From a virus: a stretch of DNA of 64,000 nt. Positions within the stretch are counted from its first letter, which is position 1. Each line of letters opens with the position of its first letter. A model generated the notes under the pieces. The model saw only the letters and a program-made list of their open reading frames with translations. It was not told the origin of the DNA and searched no databases. The position numbers and the translations under genes are program-made. Shown piece after piece: positions 30,367-36,671 of the stretch. The stretch is from positions 10,139-74,138 of the IMG/VR virus record IMGVR_UViG_3300037851_000568, one strand, 5' to 3'.

Positions 30367-31770
30367 ATGCGTACTGATGTGGTGTCCCTGCCCGAGGCGC
30401 GTCGGTCTGTCGCCGATAAGGCCTTCACGGGCGCTCTCGCTACGAAGTGGAAGGACCTTCTCGAAGGCGTTCAGGGCGATCACGTGCGTCGGAGCACGGC
30501 GATCCTCCTGGAGAACGAGATGCAGTTCCTCCAGAACCTGACGGAGGAGACTCGTGCGGCTCAGACGGGCCCGTTCACGAAGTTCATCTTCCCGCTGATC
30601 CGTCGGGTGTACCCGAACCTGATCGCCAACAACATCGTCTCGGTGCAGCCGATGACGAGCCCGGTCGGCGCGATCTTCTTCTTCCGTTACCGTTACGGCA
30701 CCAACAAGGGTGCGACGACGGCCGGAACGGAGATGATCCCCCAGCCGAACTTCGACCGCTTCTACGGGAGCGAGTCGGTCTTCGGTGAGTCCATTGGCGT
30801 CGGTGACGGCGCTACGCTGGTGTACACCACGGTCCTGGACTTCACGCCGGTTCGTCTGCCCGGTCTGACGGTCACGGCCGGTTCGGTGGTCGGCACGGCG
30901 GACGCCGCTGGTTCGATCACGGGCACGGGCATCGTGTCCGGCTCCGTGAACACGGCTACCGGTGCGATCACGGTCACGTTCGCGGCCGCCCCGGCGGCTG
31001 GCGTGCCCATCGTGTCCAACTACCAGTACAACAGCGAGCTGAACCCCAGCGTGCCGCAGGTCAACCTGGACATCGAGCTGATCGAGGTCCGGGTCCAGAC
31101 CCGCAAGCTCAAGGCGCTGTGGTCCAGCGAGGCGGCGGACGACCTCCGCAGCCTGCACGGCATGGACATCGAGACCGAGCTGGTCGCCGGTATCGCCAGC
31201 GAGCTGGCCACCGAGATCGACCGCGAGATCCTCGACGACCTGCTGGGCGGTGCGCTCAGCGGCGTGCCGGGCCTCTTCGCTCCGTCGACGGACACCTTCA
31301 ACCGGCCCGCTCCGGCTGGCGTGTCCGACTTCGAGCACATCCGGGGCATCATCATCCCGATCTCGAACGTGGCGAACAAGATCCACAAGAACACCCTGCG
31401 TGCGCCGGGTAACTGGATCGTCTGCTCGCCCGAGGTCGCCTCGGTGCTGGACAGCCTGCCGTTCTTCCAGGCGGTGGATCCCGCGCAGTACACGTACACG
31501 GGGACCATCGTCAAGATCGGCACGCTCCAGTCGAAGTGGACGGTCTACAAGGACCCCTACTTCACGAAGGACCGGATGCTGGTCGGCTACCAGGGCCCCA
31601 GCTTCCTCGACACCGGCTACGTCTGGGCCCCGTACATCCCCCTGCAGGTGACGCCGACGTTCCTCGATCCGGCGGACTTCACCCTGCGGAAGGGTCTCCG
31701 TACGCGGTACGGCAAGAAGCTGGTCCGTCCGGAGTTCTACGGAACTGTTCAGGTCACGAACTTGCCCTGA
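30367..31770 (+). CDS. major capsid protein (T4 gp23-like)
   Basis: TAILLENE, PLIRRVYPNLIA, VQPMTSPVG, RKLKALWS, YVWAPYIPL, RTRYG. Confidence 0.95.
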   Translation: MRTDVVSLPEARRSVADKAFTGALATKWKDLLEGVQGDHVRRSTAILLENEMQFLQNLTEETRAAQTGPFTKFIFPLIRRVYPNLIANNIVSVQPMTSPVGAIFFFRYRYGTNKGATTAGTEMIPQPNFDRFYGSESVFGESIGVGDGATLVYTTVLDFTPVRLPGLTVTAGSVVGTADAAGSITGTGIVSGSVNTATGAITVTFAAAPAAGVPIVSNYQYNSELNPSVPQVNLDIELIEVRVQTRKLKALWSSEAADDLRSLHGMDIETELVAGIASELATEIDREILDDLLGGALSGVPGLFAPSTDTFNRPAPAGVSDFEHIRGIIIPISNVANKIHKNTLRAPGNWIVCSPEVASVLDSLPFFQAVDPAQYTYTGTIVKIGTLQSKWTVYKDPYFTKDRMLVGYQGPSFLDTGYVWAPYIPLQVTPTFLDPADFTLRKGLRTRYGKKLVRPEFYGTVQVTNLP

Positions 31771-32279: not shown

Positions 32280-32353
32280 GCGGGTGTCGTTCAATGGCAG
32301 GACCTCAGTCTTCCAAACTGAAGACGCCGGTTCGATTCCGGTCACCCGCTCCA
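32280..32353 (+). tRNA. trnG: tRNA-Gly(TCC)
   Basis: Cloverleaf, TTCGA, CCA. Confidence 0.92.
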
Positions 32354-32354
32354 C

Positions 32355-32428
32355 AGGCCGGTGGTGAAGTGGTATCACGACTGTTTCCAAATCAGTAGTC
32401 CGGGGTTCGATCCCCCGCTGGCCTGCCA
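32355..32428 (+). tRNA. trnW: tRNA-Trp(CCA)
   Basis: Cloverleaf, G73, CCA. Confidence 0.88.
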
Positions 32429-32435
32429 AAAATTT

Positions 32436-32510
32436 GGTCCCGGAGTGTGACGGACAGCACGACACCCTGTCACGGTGTTAGAACGGGTTCGACTCCCGTC
32501 GGGATCGCCA
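32436..32510 (+). tRNA. trnD: tRNA-Asp(GTC)
   Basis: Cloverleaf, G73, CCA. Confidence 0.92.
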
Positions 32511-32511
32511 C

Positions 32512-32586
32512 TGGGGCGTGGTGTAACCGGTAGCACGTCTGACTCTGAATCAGAAAATCAAGGTTCGAGTCCTTGCGCCCCAGCCA
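32512..32586 (+). tRNA. trnQ: tRNA-Gln(CTG)
   Basis: U1:A72, G73, CCA. Confidence 0.92.
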
Positions 32587-32590
32587 ACTT

Positions 32591-32666
32591 GGACGACTAG
32601 CTAATCTAGTGAAAGCGCCGGTCTGAAAAGCCGGAGAGCCCGGAGCGAAACCGGGGTCGTCCACCA
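32591..32666 (+). tRNA. trnF: tRNA-Phe(GAA), T-loop AGCGAAA
   Basis: Cloverleaf, CCA. Confidence 0.85.
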
Positions 32667-32675
32667 AAAATTCGA

Positions 32676-32753
32676 CGCAGGGGAGAGGCACCCGGTGACC
32701 TCACCAGGCTCATAACCTGGGGCTTGTGGGTTCAAATCCCATCCCTGCTACCA
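32676..32753 (+). tRNA. trnM: tRNA-fMet-like (CAT)
   Basis: C1:U72 mismatch; CAT anticodon; only two of the three initiator GC pairs. Confidence 0.8.
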
Positions 32754-32754
32754 A

Positions 32755-32828
32755 GGGCCCGTCGTCCAACGGTAAGACACCTGCCTTGCAAGCAGGGAAT
32801 AGGAGTTCAACTCTCCTCGGGTCCACCA
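32755..32828 (+). tRNA. trnA: tRNA-Ala(TGC)
   Basis: G3:U70, CCA. Confidence 0.92.
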
Positions 32829-32834
32829 AATTTC

Positions 32835-32871
32835 GGGTGTGCTTGAATGTGGGAACGCTAGACTGTAAACT
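32835..32871 (+). pseudogene. 5' half of a disrupted tRNA-Tyr (overlaps a TTGAAT-N17-TAAACT promoter)
   Basis: GGGTGTG acceptor strand and CTGTAAA anticodon loop; pairs with CGCGCCC at 33513-33519. Confidence 0.5.
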
Positions 32872-32877
32872 ATCTTT

Positions 32878-33381
32878 ATGCCAGCTTTCGCGTCTTTAGA
32901 GCAACGATTCTGGTCGAAGGTCAAGAAGTCCGAATCCGGTTGCTGGTTGTGGATGGGGAGTCGGTCCAAATCTGGGTACGGATGGATTCATCTCGGAGGA
33001 AACCCGTACAAGGGCACCCGAAAAGGCGGAAGGGCGCATCGTGTCTCATGGGAGTTTGCTTTCGGCTCCATCCCCGATGGGCTAGATGTCCTTCACAAGT
33101 GCGATAATCCTCCATGCGTTCGCCCGGATCATCTCTTCCTCGGAAACGACTCCTCAAACGTACGGGACATGATCGAGAAGGGGAGGGCGTGGTTCCAGAC
33201 CCAACCCGGAGTAGCTCCTCGTGGGGAGAAAAATGGAAGGGCCAAGATGACGTGGAGAAGAGTTCGCCGCATCCGAAACCTGCATCGAAAAGGTGTTTCT
33301 CTTCGTGAGCTTGGGAGGATGTTTAGGCTCGACTTCTCTACAGTTGGAAGCATTGTTCGCAGGGAGACGTGGAAGGAATAA
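32878..33381 (+). CDS. free-standing HNH homing endonuclease (HNH + C-terminal HTH)
   Basis: FWSKV..GCWLW..GYG..AHRVSW..HKCDNPPCVRPDHL..N..DM..KGR, GEKNGRAK. Confidence 0.9.
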   Translation: MPAFASLEQRFWSKVKKSESGCWLWMGSRSKSGYGWIHLGGNPYKGTRKGGRAHRVSWEFAFGSIPDGLDVLHKCDNPPCVRPDHLFLGNDSSNVRDMIEKGRAWFQTQPGVAPRGEKNGRAKMTWRRVRRIRNLHRKGVSLRELGRMFRLDFSTVGSIVRRETWKE

Positions 33382-33474
33382 GCCGGGGCTGGGCAGGTCT
33401 AGGACAAAGAGCCCATCTGCCTGTAAAGCAGACGCCTTCGGGTTGTGTGGGTGCGAATCCCACCTCCGGCACCA
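33382..33474 (+). tRNA. trnY: tRNA-Tyr(GTA), enlarged D-loop, T-loop TGCGAAT
   Basis: TCTGC-CTGTAAA-GCAGA, long variable arm, CCA; starts immediately after the HNH stop. Confidence 0.85.
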
Positions 33475-33523
33475 AAACTCGTGCCCTTGTGGATAGGCGG
33501 TTCGATTCCTCACGCGCCCACCA
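33475..33523 (+). pseudogene. 3' half of a disrupted tRNA (T-arm remnant, acceptor strand, ACCA)
   Basis: GGTTCGATTCC...CGCGCCC-A-CCA with no 5' half adjacent. Confidence 0.55.
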
Positions 33524-33533
33524 AAGACTTCGC

Positions 33534-33601
33534 GGCTCGACGCGATCCTGAAAGACGTGAACAGGGATACCGAAGGAAATGTTGGCCCTGCGCGTCGAGC
33601 C
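33534..33601 (+). ncRNA. small unclassified structured RNA
   Basis: Perfect 11-bp helix GGCTCGACGCG/CGCGTCGAGCC between tRNAs. Confidence 0.45.
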
Positions 33602-33606
33602 CGTAC

Positions 33607-33680
33607 TGCCCTGTCATCTAACGGTAGGATGCTGGTCCTTGAAACCGGTCATGAGCGTTCGAGTCGCTCCGGGGCAACCA
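33607..33680 (+). tRNA. trnQ: tRNA-Gln(TTG) with C33
   Basis: U1:A72; loop CC-TTG-AA; CCA. Confidence 0.8.
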
Positions 33681-33688
33681 ATCTTTCT

Positions 33689-33763
33689 GGGGGAGTAGTC
33701 GAGCAGCAAGACGCCTCGTTGCCAACGAGGAGATCGCGGGGGCGGAACCCGTCTCCCCCTCCA
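33689..33763 (+). tRNA. trnG: tRNA-Gly(GCC), T-loop GGCGGAA
   Basis: Cloverleaf, U73, CCA. Confidence 0.85.
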
Positions 33764-33764
33764 A

Positions 33765-33839
33765 CGGCCCGTAGCTCAACGGTCAGAGCACTCGGTTGAT
33801 AACCGAGCGACGAAGGTTCGACTCCTTCTGGGCCGACCA
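33765..33839 (+). tRNA. trnI: tRNA-Ile(GAT)
   Basis: Cloverleaf, CCA. Confidence 0.92.
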
Positions 33840-33850
33840 GATTTCTACAT

Positions 33851-33927
33851 GGTGGCCATGGTGTAGTAGCTCTGCACGCCTGACTGTCACTCAGGAGGTA
33901 CGGGGGCGGAACCCGTTGGTCACCCCA
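33851..33927 (+). tRNA. tRNA with a His-type acceptor (G-1:C73) and Asp anticodon GTC
   Basis: G-GTGGCCA/TGGTCAC-C-CCA; CCTGA-CT-GTC-AC-TCAGG; T-loop GGCGGAA. Confidence 0.8.
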
Positions 33928-33933
33928 AAATTC

Positions 33934-34008
33934 CGGGACGTAGGGGAATGGTACCCCGCCTCTTTGGGGTAGAGGAAGTCGCGAGTTCGATTCTCGCCGT
34001 CCCGACCA
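33934..34008 (+). tRNA. trnP: tRNA-Pro(GGG)
   Basis: C1:G72, CCA. Confidence 0.92.
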
Positions 34009-34009
34009 C

Positions 34010-34083
34010 GCCCGCATAGGTCAGAGGCAGACCGCCAGCATGACACGCTGGAAACGGAGGTTCGATTCCTCCTGTGGGCACCA
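34010..34083 (+). tRNA. trnV: tRNA-Val(GAC)
   Basis: Cloverleaf, CCA. Confidence 0.9.
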
Positions 34084-34086
34084 CTA

Positions 34087-34160
34087 GCCGGTGTAGGATA
34101 ACGGCAGTCCACCAACTTGGTAAGTTGGGAGAGCGGGTTCGACTCCCGCCATCGGCTCCA
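34087..34160 (+). tRNA. trnT: tRNA-Thr(GGT)
   Basis: Cloverleaf, CCA. Confidence 0.92.
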
Positions 34161-34163
34161 CCT

Positions 34164-34239
34164 GCTGGCGTAGCTCAACTGGTAGAGCACCTGTTTTGTA
34201 AACAGGCGGTTGCCCGTTCAACCCGGGTCGCCAGCTCCA
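34164..34239 (+). tRNA. trnT: tRNA-Thr(TGT)
   Basis: Cloverleaf, CCA. Confidence 0.92.
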
Positions 34240-34266
34240 ATAAAAAAGCCCTCCGACAGGGAGGGC
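34240..34266 (-). terminator. minus-strand intrinsic terminator inside the tRNA array
   Basis: Minus strand reads GCCCTCC-CTGTC-GGAGGGC-TTTTTTAT. Confidence 0.6.
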
Positions 34267-34310
34267 CAAAGCTGGGTTGTCCACTAGGGACTGGACCAGC
34301 AGTATATCAC

Positions 34311-34384
34311 GCCGCTCTGGTGCAACAGCAGCACGCCGGTCTCATAAGCCGGAAATCCCGGGGCAGCTCCGGGGGGCGGTACCA
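34311..34384 (+). tRNA. tRNA-Met/Ile2(CAT), T-loop GGCAGCT
   Basis: Cloverleaf, CCA. Confidence 0.8.
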
Positions 34385-34385
34385 C

Positions 34386-34481
34386 GGAGGGGTAAGCGGG
34401 TGGGAACCCGCCGCCGTCTCGAAATCGGATGGCACCCGAGATTCAACCGGGTGTGGGGTTCGACTCCTCACCCCTCCTCCA
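34386..34481 (+). tRNA. trnS: tRNA-Ser(CGA)
   Basis: Long variable arm; U73; CCA. Confidence 0.85.
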
Positions 34482-34482
34482 C

Positions 34483-34572
34483 GGAGACGAAGGCAGTCAG
34501 CGTGCCGCAGCGGCTTGAACCCGCTTGCCCGGCCAGTCCGGGTCGCGTGTGCAACTCACGCCGTCTCCTCCA
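34483..34572 (+). tRNA. trnS: tRNA-Ser(TGA), T-loop TGCAACT
   Basis: Long variable arm; U73; CCA. Confidence 0.85.
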
Positions 34573-34582
34573 AAACATTCAC

Positions 34583-34668
34583 GGAGGCGTTGGGCATTGG
34601 CAGGCCCACTTCCTTGGAAAGGAAGCGTCGTAACTGGCGTGCGCGTTCGACTCGCGCCGCCTCCGCCA
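34583..34668 (+). tRNA. trnS: tRNA-Ser(GGA)
   Basis: Long variable arm; G73; CCA. Confidence 0.9.
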
Positions 34669-34669
34669 T

Positions 34670-34755
34670 GGAGAGGTAGGCTAATTGGTAAGCCACCACT
34701 TTGCTAAAGTGGCGCTGTAAAAGGCTTGCGGGTTCGAGCCCCGCCCTCTCCGCCA
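34670..34755 (+). tRNA. trnS: tRNA-Ser(GCT)
   Basis: Long variable arm; G73; CCA. Confidence 0.9.
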
Positions 34756-34814
34756 TCAAGAACAAAGGGTCCTGATCAGGATAGCGTGCTCAGCACGATG
34801 GTCGGGCCAAGAAT

Positions 34815-34888
34815 GGACGCGTGGCCAAATAGCAAGGCACCCGTTTGCAAAGCGGGTAGTGCAGGTGCAAGTCCTGCCGCGTCCTCCA
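34815..34888 (+). tRNA. trnC: tRNA-Cys(GCA), T-loop TGCAAGT
   Basis: U73; CCA. Confidence 0.88.
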
Positions 34889-34895
34889 AATATTT

Positions 34896-34972
34896 GCCGG
34901 GGTAGCTCATTTTAGTAGAGCGCCTGCTTCGTAAGCAGGAGGTGGCGGGGGCAGAGCCCGCCCTCGGCTCCA
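34896..34972 (+). tRNA. trnT: tRNA-Thr(CGT), T-loop GGCAGAG
   Basis: Cloverleaf, CCA. Confidence 0.85.
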
Positions 34973-34973
34973 T

Positions 34974-35047
34974 TCCAGCGTGAGGTAATGGTAGCCTGAC
35001 GGATTGTTAATCCGTTCGCGGTGGTTCGACCCCACCCGCTGGAGCCA
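34974..35047 (+). tRNA. trnN: tRNA-Asn(GTT)
   Basis: U1:A72, G73, CCA. Confidence 0.92.
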
Positions 35048-35052
35048 ATCTT

Positions 35053-35124
35053 GTCCCCGTGGCCGAGCAGAGAGGCTCCCGTCTTCTAAACGGGCCGACG
35101 TGGGCGCAAATCCCACCGGGGATA
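35053..35124 (+). tRNA. trnR: tRNA-Arg(TCT), T-loop CGCAAAT, no encoded CCA
   Basis: Cloverleaf; the next tRNA starts at 35126. Confidence 0.82.
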
Positions 35125-35125
35125 C

Positions 35126-35199
35126 GGCCTCGTCGTCTATCGGAAGGACGCCGCCCTCTCAAGGCGGAAAGGTGGGTTCGACTCCCATCGAGGCTGCCA
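35126..35199 (+). tRNA. trnE: tRNA-Glu(CTC)
   Basis: Cloverleaf, G73, CCA. Confidence 0.92.
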
Positions 35200-35204
35200 A
35201 TCTT

Positions 35205-35279
35205 GGGCCGCTCGTCTACGAGGTAGGATCTCTGGTTTTCACCCAGAAGAACGGGGTGCGACTCCCCGGCGGCCTACCA
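35205..35279 (+). tRNA. trnE: tRNA-Glu(TTC), T-loop TGCGACT
   Basis: Cloverleaf, A73, CCA. Confidence 0.87.
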
Positions 35280-35280
35280 C

Positions 35281-35354
35281 GCCTCCGTAGTCTAACAGGA
35301 AGAGACCCGGTTTTTACCCGGGGGATGGAGGTGCAAATCCTCCCGGAGGCACCA
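35281..35354 (+). tRNA. trnK: tRNA-Lys(TTT), T-loop TGCAAAT
   Basis: Cloverleaf, CCA. Confidence 0.87.
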
Positions 35355-35366
35355 ACAAAAATATTC

Positions 35367-35441
35367 GCCTTCGTAGGTCAATTGGAAGACGACCTCGCTC
35401 TTAACGAGGGGATCTCGGTTCGAGTCCGAGCGAAGGCACCA
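35367..35441 (+). tRNA. trnK: tRNA-Lys(CTT)
   Basis: Cloverleaf, CCA. Confidence 0.92.
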
Positions 35442-35446
35442 ATCTT

Positions 35447-35529
35447 GCCCCGGTGCTTGGAATTGGCATACAGCCCTCACTCAAAACGAGGGGCCGAAAG
35501 GCGTGTGGGTTCGACTCCCTCCCGGGGCA
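35447..35529 (+). tRNA. trnL: tRNA-Leu(CAA), followed by CCG rather than CCA
   Basis: Long variable arm; A73. Confidence 0.87.
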
Positions 35530-35533
35530 CCGT

Positions 35534-35617
35534 GGGCCTCTGATGGAACAGCAGACATGCCGGTCTTAGAAGCCGGTGCCGAAAGGCGTTGGGGTGCGAC
35601 TCCCCCGAGGCCCACCA
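35534..35617 (+). tRNA. trnL: tRNA-Leu(TAG), T-loop TGCGACT
   Basis: Long variable arm; CCA. Confidence 0.88.
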
Positions 35618-35627
35618 AAACATTCAT

Positions 35628-35713
35628 GCGCGGGTGGCGGAACTGGCAGACGCGCTGGTCTCAGAAGCCAGTGGGTAACACCCGTGGAGGTTCGATTCCT
35701 CTCCCGCGCACCA
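35628..35713 (+). tRNA. trnL: tRNA-Leu(CAG)
   Basis: Long variable arm; CCA. Confidence 0.92.
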
Positions 35714-35714
35714 A

Positions 35715-35788
35715 GCCCTCTTGGCGTAATGGCAGCGCACCTAGCTTACACCTAGGCGGCGGGGGTTCGATTCCCTCAGAGGGCACCA
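35715..35788 (+). tRNA. trnV: tRNA-Val(TAC)
   Basis: Cloverleaf, CCA. Confidence 0.92.
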
Positions 35789-35794
35789 ATATTT

Positions 35795-35878
35795 GCAGCC
35801 GTGGCGAAATGGCAGACGCGTCCGTTTGAGGGGCGGATGGGGAAACCCGTGGAGGTTCGACTCCTCTCGGCTGCACCA
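35795..35878 (+). tRNA. trnL: tRNA-Leu(GAG)
   Basis: Long variable arm; CCA. Confidence 0.92.
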
Positions 35879-35885
35879 AATTCAA

Positions 35886-35961
35886 CGGGCCATGGGGTAA
35901 TCGGCAACCCGCCTGCTTCGGGAGCAGGAACATCCCGGTTCGAGTCCGGGTGGCCCGACCA
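35886..35961 (+). tRNA. trnP: tRNA-Pro(CGG)
   Basis: C1:G72; CCA. Confidence 0.92.
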
Positions 35962-35969
35962 ATCTTCAT

Positions 35970-36045
35970 GGGCCGGTAGCTCAGCGGCAGGAGCGGCCAG
36001 CTCATAACTGGACGGTAGCGGGATCGTCACCCGCACGGCCCACCA
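35970..36045 (+). tRNA. tRNA-Ile2/Met(CAT), T-loop ATCGTCA
   Basis: Cloverleaf, CCA. Confidence 0.82.
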
Positions 36046-36046
36046 A

Positions 36047-36122
36047 CAGGCTCAGGGGTAGATAGCGACCCGCCTCGCTTGGAACGAGGAGAAGGAACGT
36101 GCAAGTCGTTCGAGCCTGACCA
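36047..36122 (+). tRNA. trnP: tRNA-Pro(TGG), A37, T-loop TGCAAGT
   Basis: C1:G72; CCA. Confidence 0.87.
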
Positions 36123-36128
36123 AATATT

Positions 36129-36432
36129 GGAGCGTTCGCTGTCGCTGCGGAGGTAGCAGTACCTCCTAGCTCATGGGACAACGGCCCAAACGAGTATCCG
36201 TAAGTCTCCAGCGCCCACACCCGCGAAGGGGCGCAAGAGGCGAGGCAGGGCGGTGGCATACGCCCGTCACGACCTGTACCTCGGAGATGATCTTGGCCGG
36301 GTCGCCGCAATAAGGGTTTGGGGTAAATCCTGCCGCGAAAGCGAGACGGGGCATGAAAGGTAGCGGGTGCCACGGCGACTAAACCCCGCAGCAGGTGAGT
36401 GGATAGGCAAAAGCGAGGTCAGCGAACGCTCC
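36129..36432 (+). ncRNA. raiA-motif-like large structured ncRNA
   Basis: 13-bp terminal helix; AAACGA-TATCC-GTAAG, TCCTGCCG..GCGAGA, CAGCAGGTGAGT-GGATA, CAAA..AGGTC; crossing (pseudoknot) pairings. Confidence 0.75.
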
Positions 36433-36437
36433 TTTAG

Positions 36438-36511
36438 GCCCCCGTGGTGTAGCAGAGGCACAGCTGTTTCCTAAACAGCAAGGTCCGGCGCAACTCCGGA
36501 CGGGGGCTCCA
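36438..36511 (+). tRNA. trnR: tRNA-Arg(CCT), T-loop CGCAACT
   Basis: Cloverleaf, U73, CCA. Confidence 0.85.
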
Positions 36512-36518
36512 AACATTC

Positions 36519-36593
36519 GCCCCGGTAGTGAAATGGACATCACGGCTCCCTCCGAAGGAGTCATTGCGAGTTCGAGTCTCGCCTGGGGCACCA
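36519..36593 (+). tRNA. trnR: tRNA-Arg(CCG)
   Basis: Cloverleaf, CCA. Confidence 0.92.
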
Positions 36594-36594
36594 T

Positions 36595-36671
36595 CTCCCC
36601 GTCCCGTAACTGGACAACGGTCCCGGCTACGAACCGGGCACATACAGGTTCGAGTCCTGTCGGGGAGACCA
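36595..36671 (+). tRNA. trnR: tRNA-Arg(ACG)
   Basis: Cloverleaf, CCA. Confidence 0.92.

Follow-up and report, generated by a model that had tools for sequence, protein, structure and literature searches.

In an uncultured T4-like phage, a tRNA-Tyr(GUA) gene is split into two halves by a 608-bp insert located within its anticodon loop, and the insert carries an HNH endonuclease gene followed by a second, complete tRNA-Tyr(GUA) gene. This insert is very likely an intron-less homing cassette, in which a free-standing I-HmuI-like HNH gene targets the anticodon arm of the resident tRNA-Tyr gene and the spare tRNA pays for the damage. The locus was found in a stretch of 64,000 nucleotides, referred to here as the window, that forms part of an 86.9-kb IMG/VR virus record [IMGVR_UViG_3300037851_000568] estimated to be ~37% complete. 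A first-pass annotation, made from the letters alone, had pointed to the two halves, the AAACT repeats flanking the insert, the HNH open reading frame (ORF) and the intact tRNA-Tyr, and all of these elements were recovered in place. The parts of the locus are as follows.

32835..32871, plus strand: 5′ relic of the tRNA-Tyr gene, with the acceptor 5′ strand, a damaged D arm, the anticodon-stem 5′ strand, and the anticodon loop CTGTAAA plus CT
32867..32871, plus strand: left copy of the junction repeat, AAACT
32878..33381, plus strand: HNH ORF of 167 aa, intact, with its ATG 6 nt past the left junction
33382..33474, plus strand: replacement tRNA-Tyr(GUA) of 93 nt, supported by Rfam, relaxed ARAGORN and fold
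33474..33479, plus strand: right copy of the junction repeat, (A)AAACT, with AAACT at 33475-33479 and readable as AAAACT from 33474
33474..33523, plus strand: 3′ relic of the tRNA-Tyr gene, with the end of the anticodon loop, the anticodon-stem 3′ strand ACTCG, the variable arm, the T arm, the acceptor 3′ strand and ACCA

Window positions 32835-32871 and 33474-33523 are the two halves of a single tRNA-Tyr(GUA) gene. The 5′ relic (37 nt) starts like a tRNA, terminates in CTGTAAACT, and is separated from the upstream tRNA-Ala(TGC) by a 6-nt spacer that is identical in relatives. The 3′ relic consists of AAAACT and a further 44 bases that include a perfect T-loop GGTTCGATTCC, CGCGCCC and the ACCA that ends at 33523. 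The acceptor strands GGGTGTG and CGCGCCC pair at 7/7 positions (5 G-C, 2 G-U), which bears out the pairing read in the first-pass annotation. The 3′ half that it described is also real, but its start is better placed at 33474 than at 33475.

Sister phages were located by a search with the capsid protein, which yielded three records representing two phages, L082/L084 and L090. Their capsid proteins are 99% (L082/L084) and 96% (L090) identical to that of the window, and L082 and L084, which come from different samples, are 100% identical across 12.6 kb. No close relative was found among GenBank phages, where there are short tRNA matches only and the best capsid identity is 37%. The genes that serve as landmarks for these comparisons are:

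30367-31770: T4-type major capsid gene
32280-36671, plus strand: array of ~40 tRNA genes
32755..32828, plus strand: tRNA-Ala(TGC), the upstream neighbour and putative left homology arm, called by ARAGORN and 100% identical to L082
33607..33680, plus strand: tRNA-Gln(TTG), the downstream neighbour, called by ARAGORN and a divergent allele with 78% identity to L082

Both L082/L084 and L090 carry an uninterrupted tRNA-Tyr(GTA) gene at the same site, flanked by tRNA-Ala(TGC) and tRNA-Gln(TTG) (L082:6654-6738; L090:8983-9066). The relic matches the intact L082 gene at 20/21 positions in 32835-32855 and 32/33 in 33491-33523, and the intact L090 gene at 34/36 in 33474-33509. As the halves match both ends of an intact sister tRNA-Tyr, they are fragments of one gene that was split by the insert, and the correspondence goes well beyond chance. 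Related phages with an uninterrupted gene here are what the first-pass annotation proposed to look for, and two independent sister phages supply them; the possibility it raised against itself, that the fragments belong to different tRNAs, does not hold, both mapping to one tRNA-Tyr gene. A search with a DNA pattern from the 5′ relic returned just the two sister records already known.

The intact L090 allele reads CTGTAAAACTCG, with a single AAAACT. The junctions in the window read TAAACT on the left and AAAACT on the right, indicating that a 5-6-bp piece of the target has been duplicated. AAACT was probably duplicated when the cassette first inserted, in a non-homologous (end-joining) or microhomology event.

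Sites at which the intact L082 and L090 alleles differ were used to score the ancestry of the relic, the two alleles being very different from each other. The outer part of the 5′ relic has 8 sites of the L082 type and none of the L090 type, the inner part of the 3′ relic has 6 of the L090 type and none of the L082 type, and the outer part of the 3′ relic has 6 of the L082 type and none of the L090 type. Hence the 5′ relic is of the L082 type over 32835-32855 (20/21), and the 3′ relic is composed of an L090-type block, 33474-33509 (34/36), and an L082-type block, 33510-33523 (14/14). The switches between alleles are located in the shared stretches TGTGGGAA (D loop) and GGTTCGATTCC (T loop). 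In the inner 5′ flank, 32856-32866, the sequence is rearranged and shorter by 3 nt. The order recipient-donor-insert-donor-recipient fits the pattern predicted for break repair with co-conversion, and under such a scheme the cassette would have resided first in an L090-like gene and would later have been copied into an L082-like gene.

When joined in silico, the relic halves form an anticodon loop of 8 nt and a D stem of a single pair, with two mismatches in the anticodon stem and two in the T stem, the latter because the T stem is built from two alleles. The old tRNA-Tyr gene is thus predicted to be dead. These features bear on an explanation to which very little probability is given, namely that the insert is an intron, that the transcript is spliced to give a functional tRNA-Tyr, and that the inner tRNA is a passenger. 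Group I introns in bacterial tRNA genes classically occupy the anticodon loop, and the PDDEXK_5 family, found in a sister-phage cassette described below, includes I-Ssp6803I, the endonuclease of a tRNA-fMet intron. In addition, some tRNAs of huge phages are said to contain introns (PMC8346664). However, 6 nt, the ORF and the tRNA take up the 608 bp, and a ribozyme core would not fit. The joined halves do not form a cloverleaf, every one of the D, anticodon and T stems being broken, and the relic, in which the T stem is mismatched, combines two alleles. Under permissive settings (E ≤ 10), a search of 32800-33640 against Rfam found only the inner tRNA and the end of tRNA-Ala (tRNA/tmRNA-like), with no group I intron or other ribozyme. 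The intron reading was rejected for want of a ribozyme match in Rfam, of room for one, and of a tRNA in the joined halves.

The HNH ORF predicts a protein with an HNH_3 His-Me finger (residues 53-96) and a C-terminal helix-turn-helix (residues 130-162). The match to Pfam HNH_3 [PF13392] has an E-value of 1.6e-13 and 50.5 bits against a cut-off of 24.8, and covers profile positions 3-46 of 46. PHROG HNH families are also matched, with E-values as low as 3e-30. Only HNH and helix-turn-helix families match the ORF in Pfam and PHROG, with no GIY-YIG domain. In an alignment with 11 homologues, all 30 invariant columns are retained, including H54, H73, C75, D76, N77, C80, H85 and N94. An AlphaFold model of the protein (mean predicted local distance difference test score, pLDDT, 87.7) has as its top PDB match I-HmuI [1u3e], with a probability of 1.00, a weak E-value of 2.5e-3 and 26% identity over 93 columns, and I-PpoI is next; a sequence-only PDB search with the protein found nothing. 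From its conserved residues and modelled fold, the nuclease looks active. The gene also looks foreign in composition, with a G+C content (GC) of 54%, or 59% at third codon positions (GC3), compared with 65% and 89% in the capsid gene.

The first base of the spare tRNA (33382) directly abuts the stop codon of the HNH ORF, and the tRNA ends in ACCA at 33474. Its acceptor stem is GCCGGGG/CTCCGGC, the D stem GGGC/GCCC encloses a 16-nt D loop, the anticodon arm is TCTGC-CTGTAAA-GCAGA, and the T arm is GTGGG-TGCGAAT-CCCAC, with G at position 55. It also has a long variable arm (14 nt), A73, a G1-C72 pair and an encoded CCA. A long variable arm, A73 and G1-C72 are features recognised by bacterial tyrosyl-tRNA synthetase (TyrRS). 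The spare may be charged with tyrosine. The Rfam tRNA model RF00005 scores it at 34.4 bits against a gathering score of 29, and its minimum-energy fold is a cloverleaf. ARAGORN misses it at default settings but at a relaxed threshold calls a tRNA-Tyr(gta) in a different 5′ register; the alternative register begins at 33388, 6 nt downstream.

The spare lacks a D loop of normal length and the canonical elbow, in which G18/G19 meet U55/C56. U55 is nearly universal in the T loops of tRNAs, and the old tRNA-Tyr alleles, unlike the spare, carry TTC there. However, NGC in place of TTC, i.e. G55, is found in ~13 other tRNA genes of the array and in several tRNA genes of L082, and it is therefore a trait of the lineage and not a defect of the spare alone. 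These lie within window positions 32591-36511, and examples are Phe, Gly-GCC, Met (34311), Ser-TGA, Cys, Glu-TTC, Lys-TTT, Leu-TAG, Pro-TGG and Arg-CCT in the window.

The spare is the sole tRNA-Tyr that was found in the window or anywhere in the 86.9-kb record, from which an intact copy of the presumed target is absent. It shares 61% identity with the tRNA-Tyr allele of L082, and differs from the L090-type target at 14/20 of the positions that flank the shared CTGTAAA loop. It is plausible, given these differences, that the spare is resistant to the HNH enzyme.

The inference of a homing module that was made in the first-pass annotation is supported by the empty sites, the retained invariant residues, the match to I-HmuI, the foreign composition, the chimeric flanks and the standing of the spare as the sole tRNA-Tyr. 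In the mechanism proposed, a mixed infection would bring the endonuclease together with a phage that lacks the cassette, and the enzyme would nick or cut the intact tRNA-Tyr gene of that phage in or close to the anticodon loop. The break would be repaired off the cassette-bearing genome, with the relic halves and the neighbouring tRNA genes acting as homology arms, and the recipient would lose its own tRNA-Tyr while gaining the endonuclease gene and the spare. The different stems of the spare would allow it to escape recognition by the enzyme. As the spare would cancel the cost of destroying a useful gene, a self-splicing intron would be unnecessary.

Analogous arrangements are present in the sister phages, where three to four cassettes that pair a PD-(D/E)XK or HNH gene with a tRNA of the same anticodon were found in tRNA-Thr, tRNA-Arg and tRNA-Asn genes. 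L082 has several further insertions relative to the window, in which the corresponding tRNA genes are intact. One of these genes is tRNA-Thr(TGT), which is split at the anticodon in L082:7295-7884 and L090:9629-10219 but intact at 34164-34239 of the window. Here, the cassette comprises a complete, different tRNA-Thr(TGT) and a PD-(D/E)XK gene (Pfam PDDEXK_5, E 1.3e-28), the stop codon of which is partly made of bases from the anticodon loop of the old tRNA-Thr, and both relic halves are 100% identical to the intact gene in the window.

Two tRNA-Arg genes of L082 are broken in a similar manner. tRNA-Arg(CCT) (L082:10692-11498; window counterpart 36438-36511) is split by tRNA-Arg(CCT), tRNA-Arg(CCG) and an HNH_3 gene, and tRNA-Arg(ACG) (L082:11586-12186; window counterpart 36595-36671) is split past the anticodon loop by tRNA-Arg(ACG) and another HNH gene (PHROG HNH, E 8e-34). 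The carried tRNA-Arg genes with anticodons CCG and ACG both begin right after an identical TATAAT-CTCCCCGTAG context. L082:10692-10731 is a 40-nt 'mini-tRNA' to which the old tRNA-Arg(CCT) contributes the acceptor 5′ strand and D arm, joined directly to an acceptor-like 3′ strand and ACCA, and it may be the wreckage of an earlier nested event. A further gene, tRNA-Asn(GTT) (L082:8752-9311; window counterpart 34974-35047), shows an apparent split past the D arm by tRNA-Asn(GTT) and an ORF for a Cys/His-rich protein of 122 aa. It was probably split like the other tRNA genes, and the 122-aa protein, for which neither Pfam nor PHROG gave a match, may be an HNH-like nuclease that is so far unclassified. 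In every cassette, the anticodon of the carried tRNA is that of the broken gene.

Free-standing PDDEXK_5 genes are located directly upstream of tRNA-Thr(TGT) on viral contigs of two more distant phages, L101:1502-1983 and L102:1502-1980, where they share 67% and 62% identity, respectively, with the L082 gene and no relic is visible beside them. This arrangement looks like the ordinary free-standing form from which the nested one can arise. Homologues of PDDEXK_5 within tRNA clusters were also seen in cultured phages, namely Acinetobacter phage Herod (L095), Synechococcus phage Sf-FR1 (L096) and Escherichia phage 241 (L098). In Sf-FR1, the end of the ORF overlaps the start of a tRNA-Val by 21 nt. 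No clear relic halves with the same anticodon were found in the Herod and Sf-FR1 sequences that were read.

As the tRNA-Tyr cassette is known from a single assembly, the arrangement could in principle be an assembly chimera of two co-occurring phage strains, but this is very improbable. The ORF is complete, with its start 6 nt from the junction, and its stop codon is directly adjoined by the tRNA; both ends of the relic are in register with the neighbouring genes; and the same design is seen for tRNA-Thr in independent assemblies from other samples (L082, L084 and L090).

Several observations weigh against the view that the insert is a homing cassette. Because no second copy of either the HNH gene or the spare tRNA was found, the evidence for mobility of this exact cassette is confined to one occupied and two empty sites. 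No other copy of the HNH gene was found in IMG/VR, where the best of 316 relatives has 60% identity over a partial length, and the 2275 relatives in a set of 5.8 billion proteins are all ≤57% identical. No exact match to either of two DNA patterns from the spare tRNA turned up elsewhere in IMG/VR. The loci of the nearest HNH relatives are mostly free of tRNA genes, with any tRNA in 6/80, and one of those examined, L011, has no tRNA relic, which implies that a tRNA target characterises this enzyme and not its family as a whole. The spare is atypical (16-nt D loop or alternative acceptor register, G55, 34.4 bits in Rfam). The inner 5′ flank is about equidistant from both known alleles and is the less clear side of the relic. 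A 5-bp duplication is not a product of homologous repair, so that the founding insertion needs a separate explanation. Finally, an 83-nt stretch immediately downstream and the divergent tRNA-Gln that follows it show that more than one event has shaped the site.

33524..33606, plus strand: 83-nt stretch that forms a long hairpin (z -2.9)

This stretch is absent from both sister phages, in which tRNA-Gln follows tRNA-Tyr within 1-2 nt. Nothing similar was found in the window or in relatives, and there is no Rfam match. It may have arrived with the cassette or be a remnant of an earlier event.

Some of these points would also suit an explanation in which the insert was placed by untargeted recombination within a mosaic tRNA array, the HNH enzyme cutting elsewhere or being a passenger, and the shared anticodon arising via selection or homology between tRNA alleles. 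The array is indeed very mosaic: between phages with near-identical capsid genes, about half of its tRNA genes show differences of 21-42%. In addition, the closest HNH relatives lack a link to tRNAs, and the 83 nt and a new tRNA-Gln allele are extra changes that adjoin the cassette. Nevertheless, this explanation is considered unlikely. Across four to five cassettes with at least three nuclease families, the broken and carried genes share an anticodon, and each cassette has at least one junction in or beside the anticodon arm. The PDDEXK_5 clade stays with tRNA-Thr(TGT) across four phage lineages, and the symmetric chimerism of the relic fits break repair centred on the insert. A homing cassette directed at the tRNA-Tyr gene is hence the preferred interpretation.

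The first-pass annotation had also read the 5′ relic as a promoter for a leaderless HNH mRNA, and this proposal fared less well. No Shine-Dalgarno sequence precedes the HNH ORF, and the candidate promoter is:

32843..32871, plus strand: weak sigma-70-like match, TTGAAT-17 nt-TAAACT, 6 nt ahead of the ATG and with 8/12 consensus positions

A promoter scan gave no call there. Upstream of the PDDEXK_5 gene, L082 has TATAAT 6 nt before the ATG, and L090 has a different sequence that includes a Shine-Dalgarno-like AAGG; thus, a leaderless design is not conserved.

A full-text literature search found no account of a split tRNA gene accompanied by both an endonuclease and a substitute tRNA. Among known systems, the nearest is SegB of T4 and T6, a free-standing GIY-YIG homing endonuclease in the tRNA cluster that cuts the tRNA genes of relatives lacking it and spreads with adjacent tRNA genes, with loss of the recipient's markers (PMC2330249; PMC13096335). 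Homologues of SegB are enriched beside tRNA genes (PMC13096335), and the segB ORF abuts the next tRNA such that tRNA processing cuts the mRNA at the stop codon (PMC2330249). Like segB, the HNH gene described here is free-standing in a phage tRNA array, with its stop codon touching the first base of a tRNA. By analogy, its expression may be kept low, as has been proposed for segB, and processing of the tRNA 5′ end would cut the message right behind the stop codon. However, the enzyme here belongs to HNH_3, whereas SegB is of the GIY-YIG type and recognises the T-loop that is conserved among many tRNA genes. SegB is also located between genes, whereas the cassette here lies inside one tRNA gene, which leaves two relic halves, and is accompanied by a substitute with the same anticodon.

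In domain structure the protein resembles I-HmuI, from the group I intron of Bacillus phage SPO1 [PDB 1u3e], with an HNH_3 His-Me finger and a C-terminal DNA-binding helix-turn-helix. I-HmuI is intron-encoded and nicks one strand; the insert here, in contrast, has no intron. I-Ssp6803I is a PD-(D/E)XK homing endonuclease of a cyanobacterial tRNA-fMet group I intron and targets the tRNA anticodon loop. It belongs to the same Pfam family [PF11645] as the nuclease of the tRNA-Thr(TGT) cassette in L082 and L090, and the nuclease in the window is in another family. The cost of insertion, which I-Ssp6803I cancels by means of a self-splicing intron, would be cancelled here by a spare tRNA gene.

Intron-less or collaborative homing is also known, as are endonuclease genes that split genes, e.g. 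MobE in nrdA of Aeh1, whose homing has been described (PMC2790892). With systems of this type, the cassette would share a free-standing endonuclease gene, located within or beside its target, and break repair without an intron of its own. In those systems the host gene is functional, via split subunits or a neighbouring intron, whereas the gene broken here is given up in favour of a complete substitute. Integrative elements that enter tRNA genes encode an integrase and bring a replacement 3′ part of the same tRNA. As in those elements, the function of the disrupted tRNA would be restored and a short direct repeat flanks the insert, but there is no integrase, the carried tRNA is a complete divergent allele (61% identical), and the old gene is not rebuilt.

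The surroundings of the cassette are as mosaic as noted above. When tRNA genes with the same anticodon were paired between the window (32280-36671) and L082 (6103-11739), 18 pairs shared 93-100% identity and ~19 only 58-79%, and the tRNA-Gln(TTG) just 3′ of the cassette belongs to the latter, replaced class. Other features of the array include a tRNA with the anticodon GTC (33852-33927) that is 98.7% identical to tRNA-His(GTG) of L082, and a weak match to the raiA motif (41.4 bits against a gathering score of 101) at 36132-36429, between tRNA-Pro(TGG) and tRNA-Arg(CCT).

It is hypothesised that repeated replacement driven by cassettes, followed by loss of the nuclease and the relics, would yield this pattern of two classes. 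In a wider and more doubtful form, put forward only tentatively, endonuclease cassettes that carry a spare would be the chief driver of allele turnover in phage tRNA arrays, exchanging entire tRNA genes again and again between phages in the same infection, in the manner of a gene drive, and the resulting variety in tRNA bodies (stems, variable arms and G55 elbows) may aid escape from host nucleases that cut tRNAs. If true, this would account for the differences of 21-42% seen in about half of the tRNA genes despite 99% capsid identity.

Homing endonuclease genes are usually thought to spare their hosts through self-splicing introns or inteins, or by occupying intergenic sites. The locus described here would represent a third way, in which the element breaks its target gene and brings a substitute that is predicted to be functional. 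The case is unusually clean, with two empty sites, a relic of mixed ancestry, and reciprocal cassettes with other nuclease families in other tRNA genes of the lineage. For the annotation of large phages, it suggests caution, since this type of wreckage may underlie 'tRNA introns', tRNA fragments and duplicate isoacceptors. It also places the predicted recognition sites of several uncharacterised nucleases in tRNA anticodon arms, and supplies a concrete mechanism by which phage tRNA arrays could become so mosaic.

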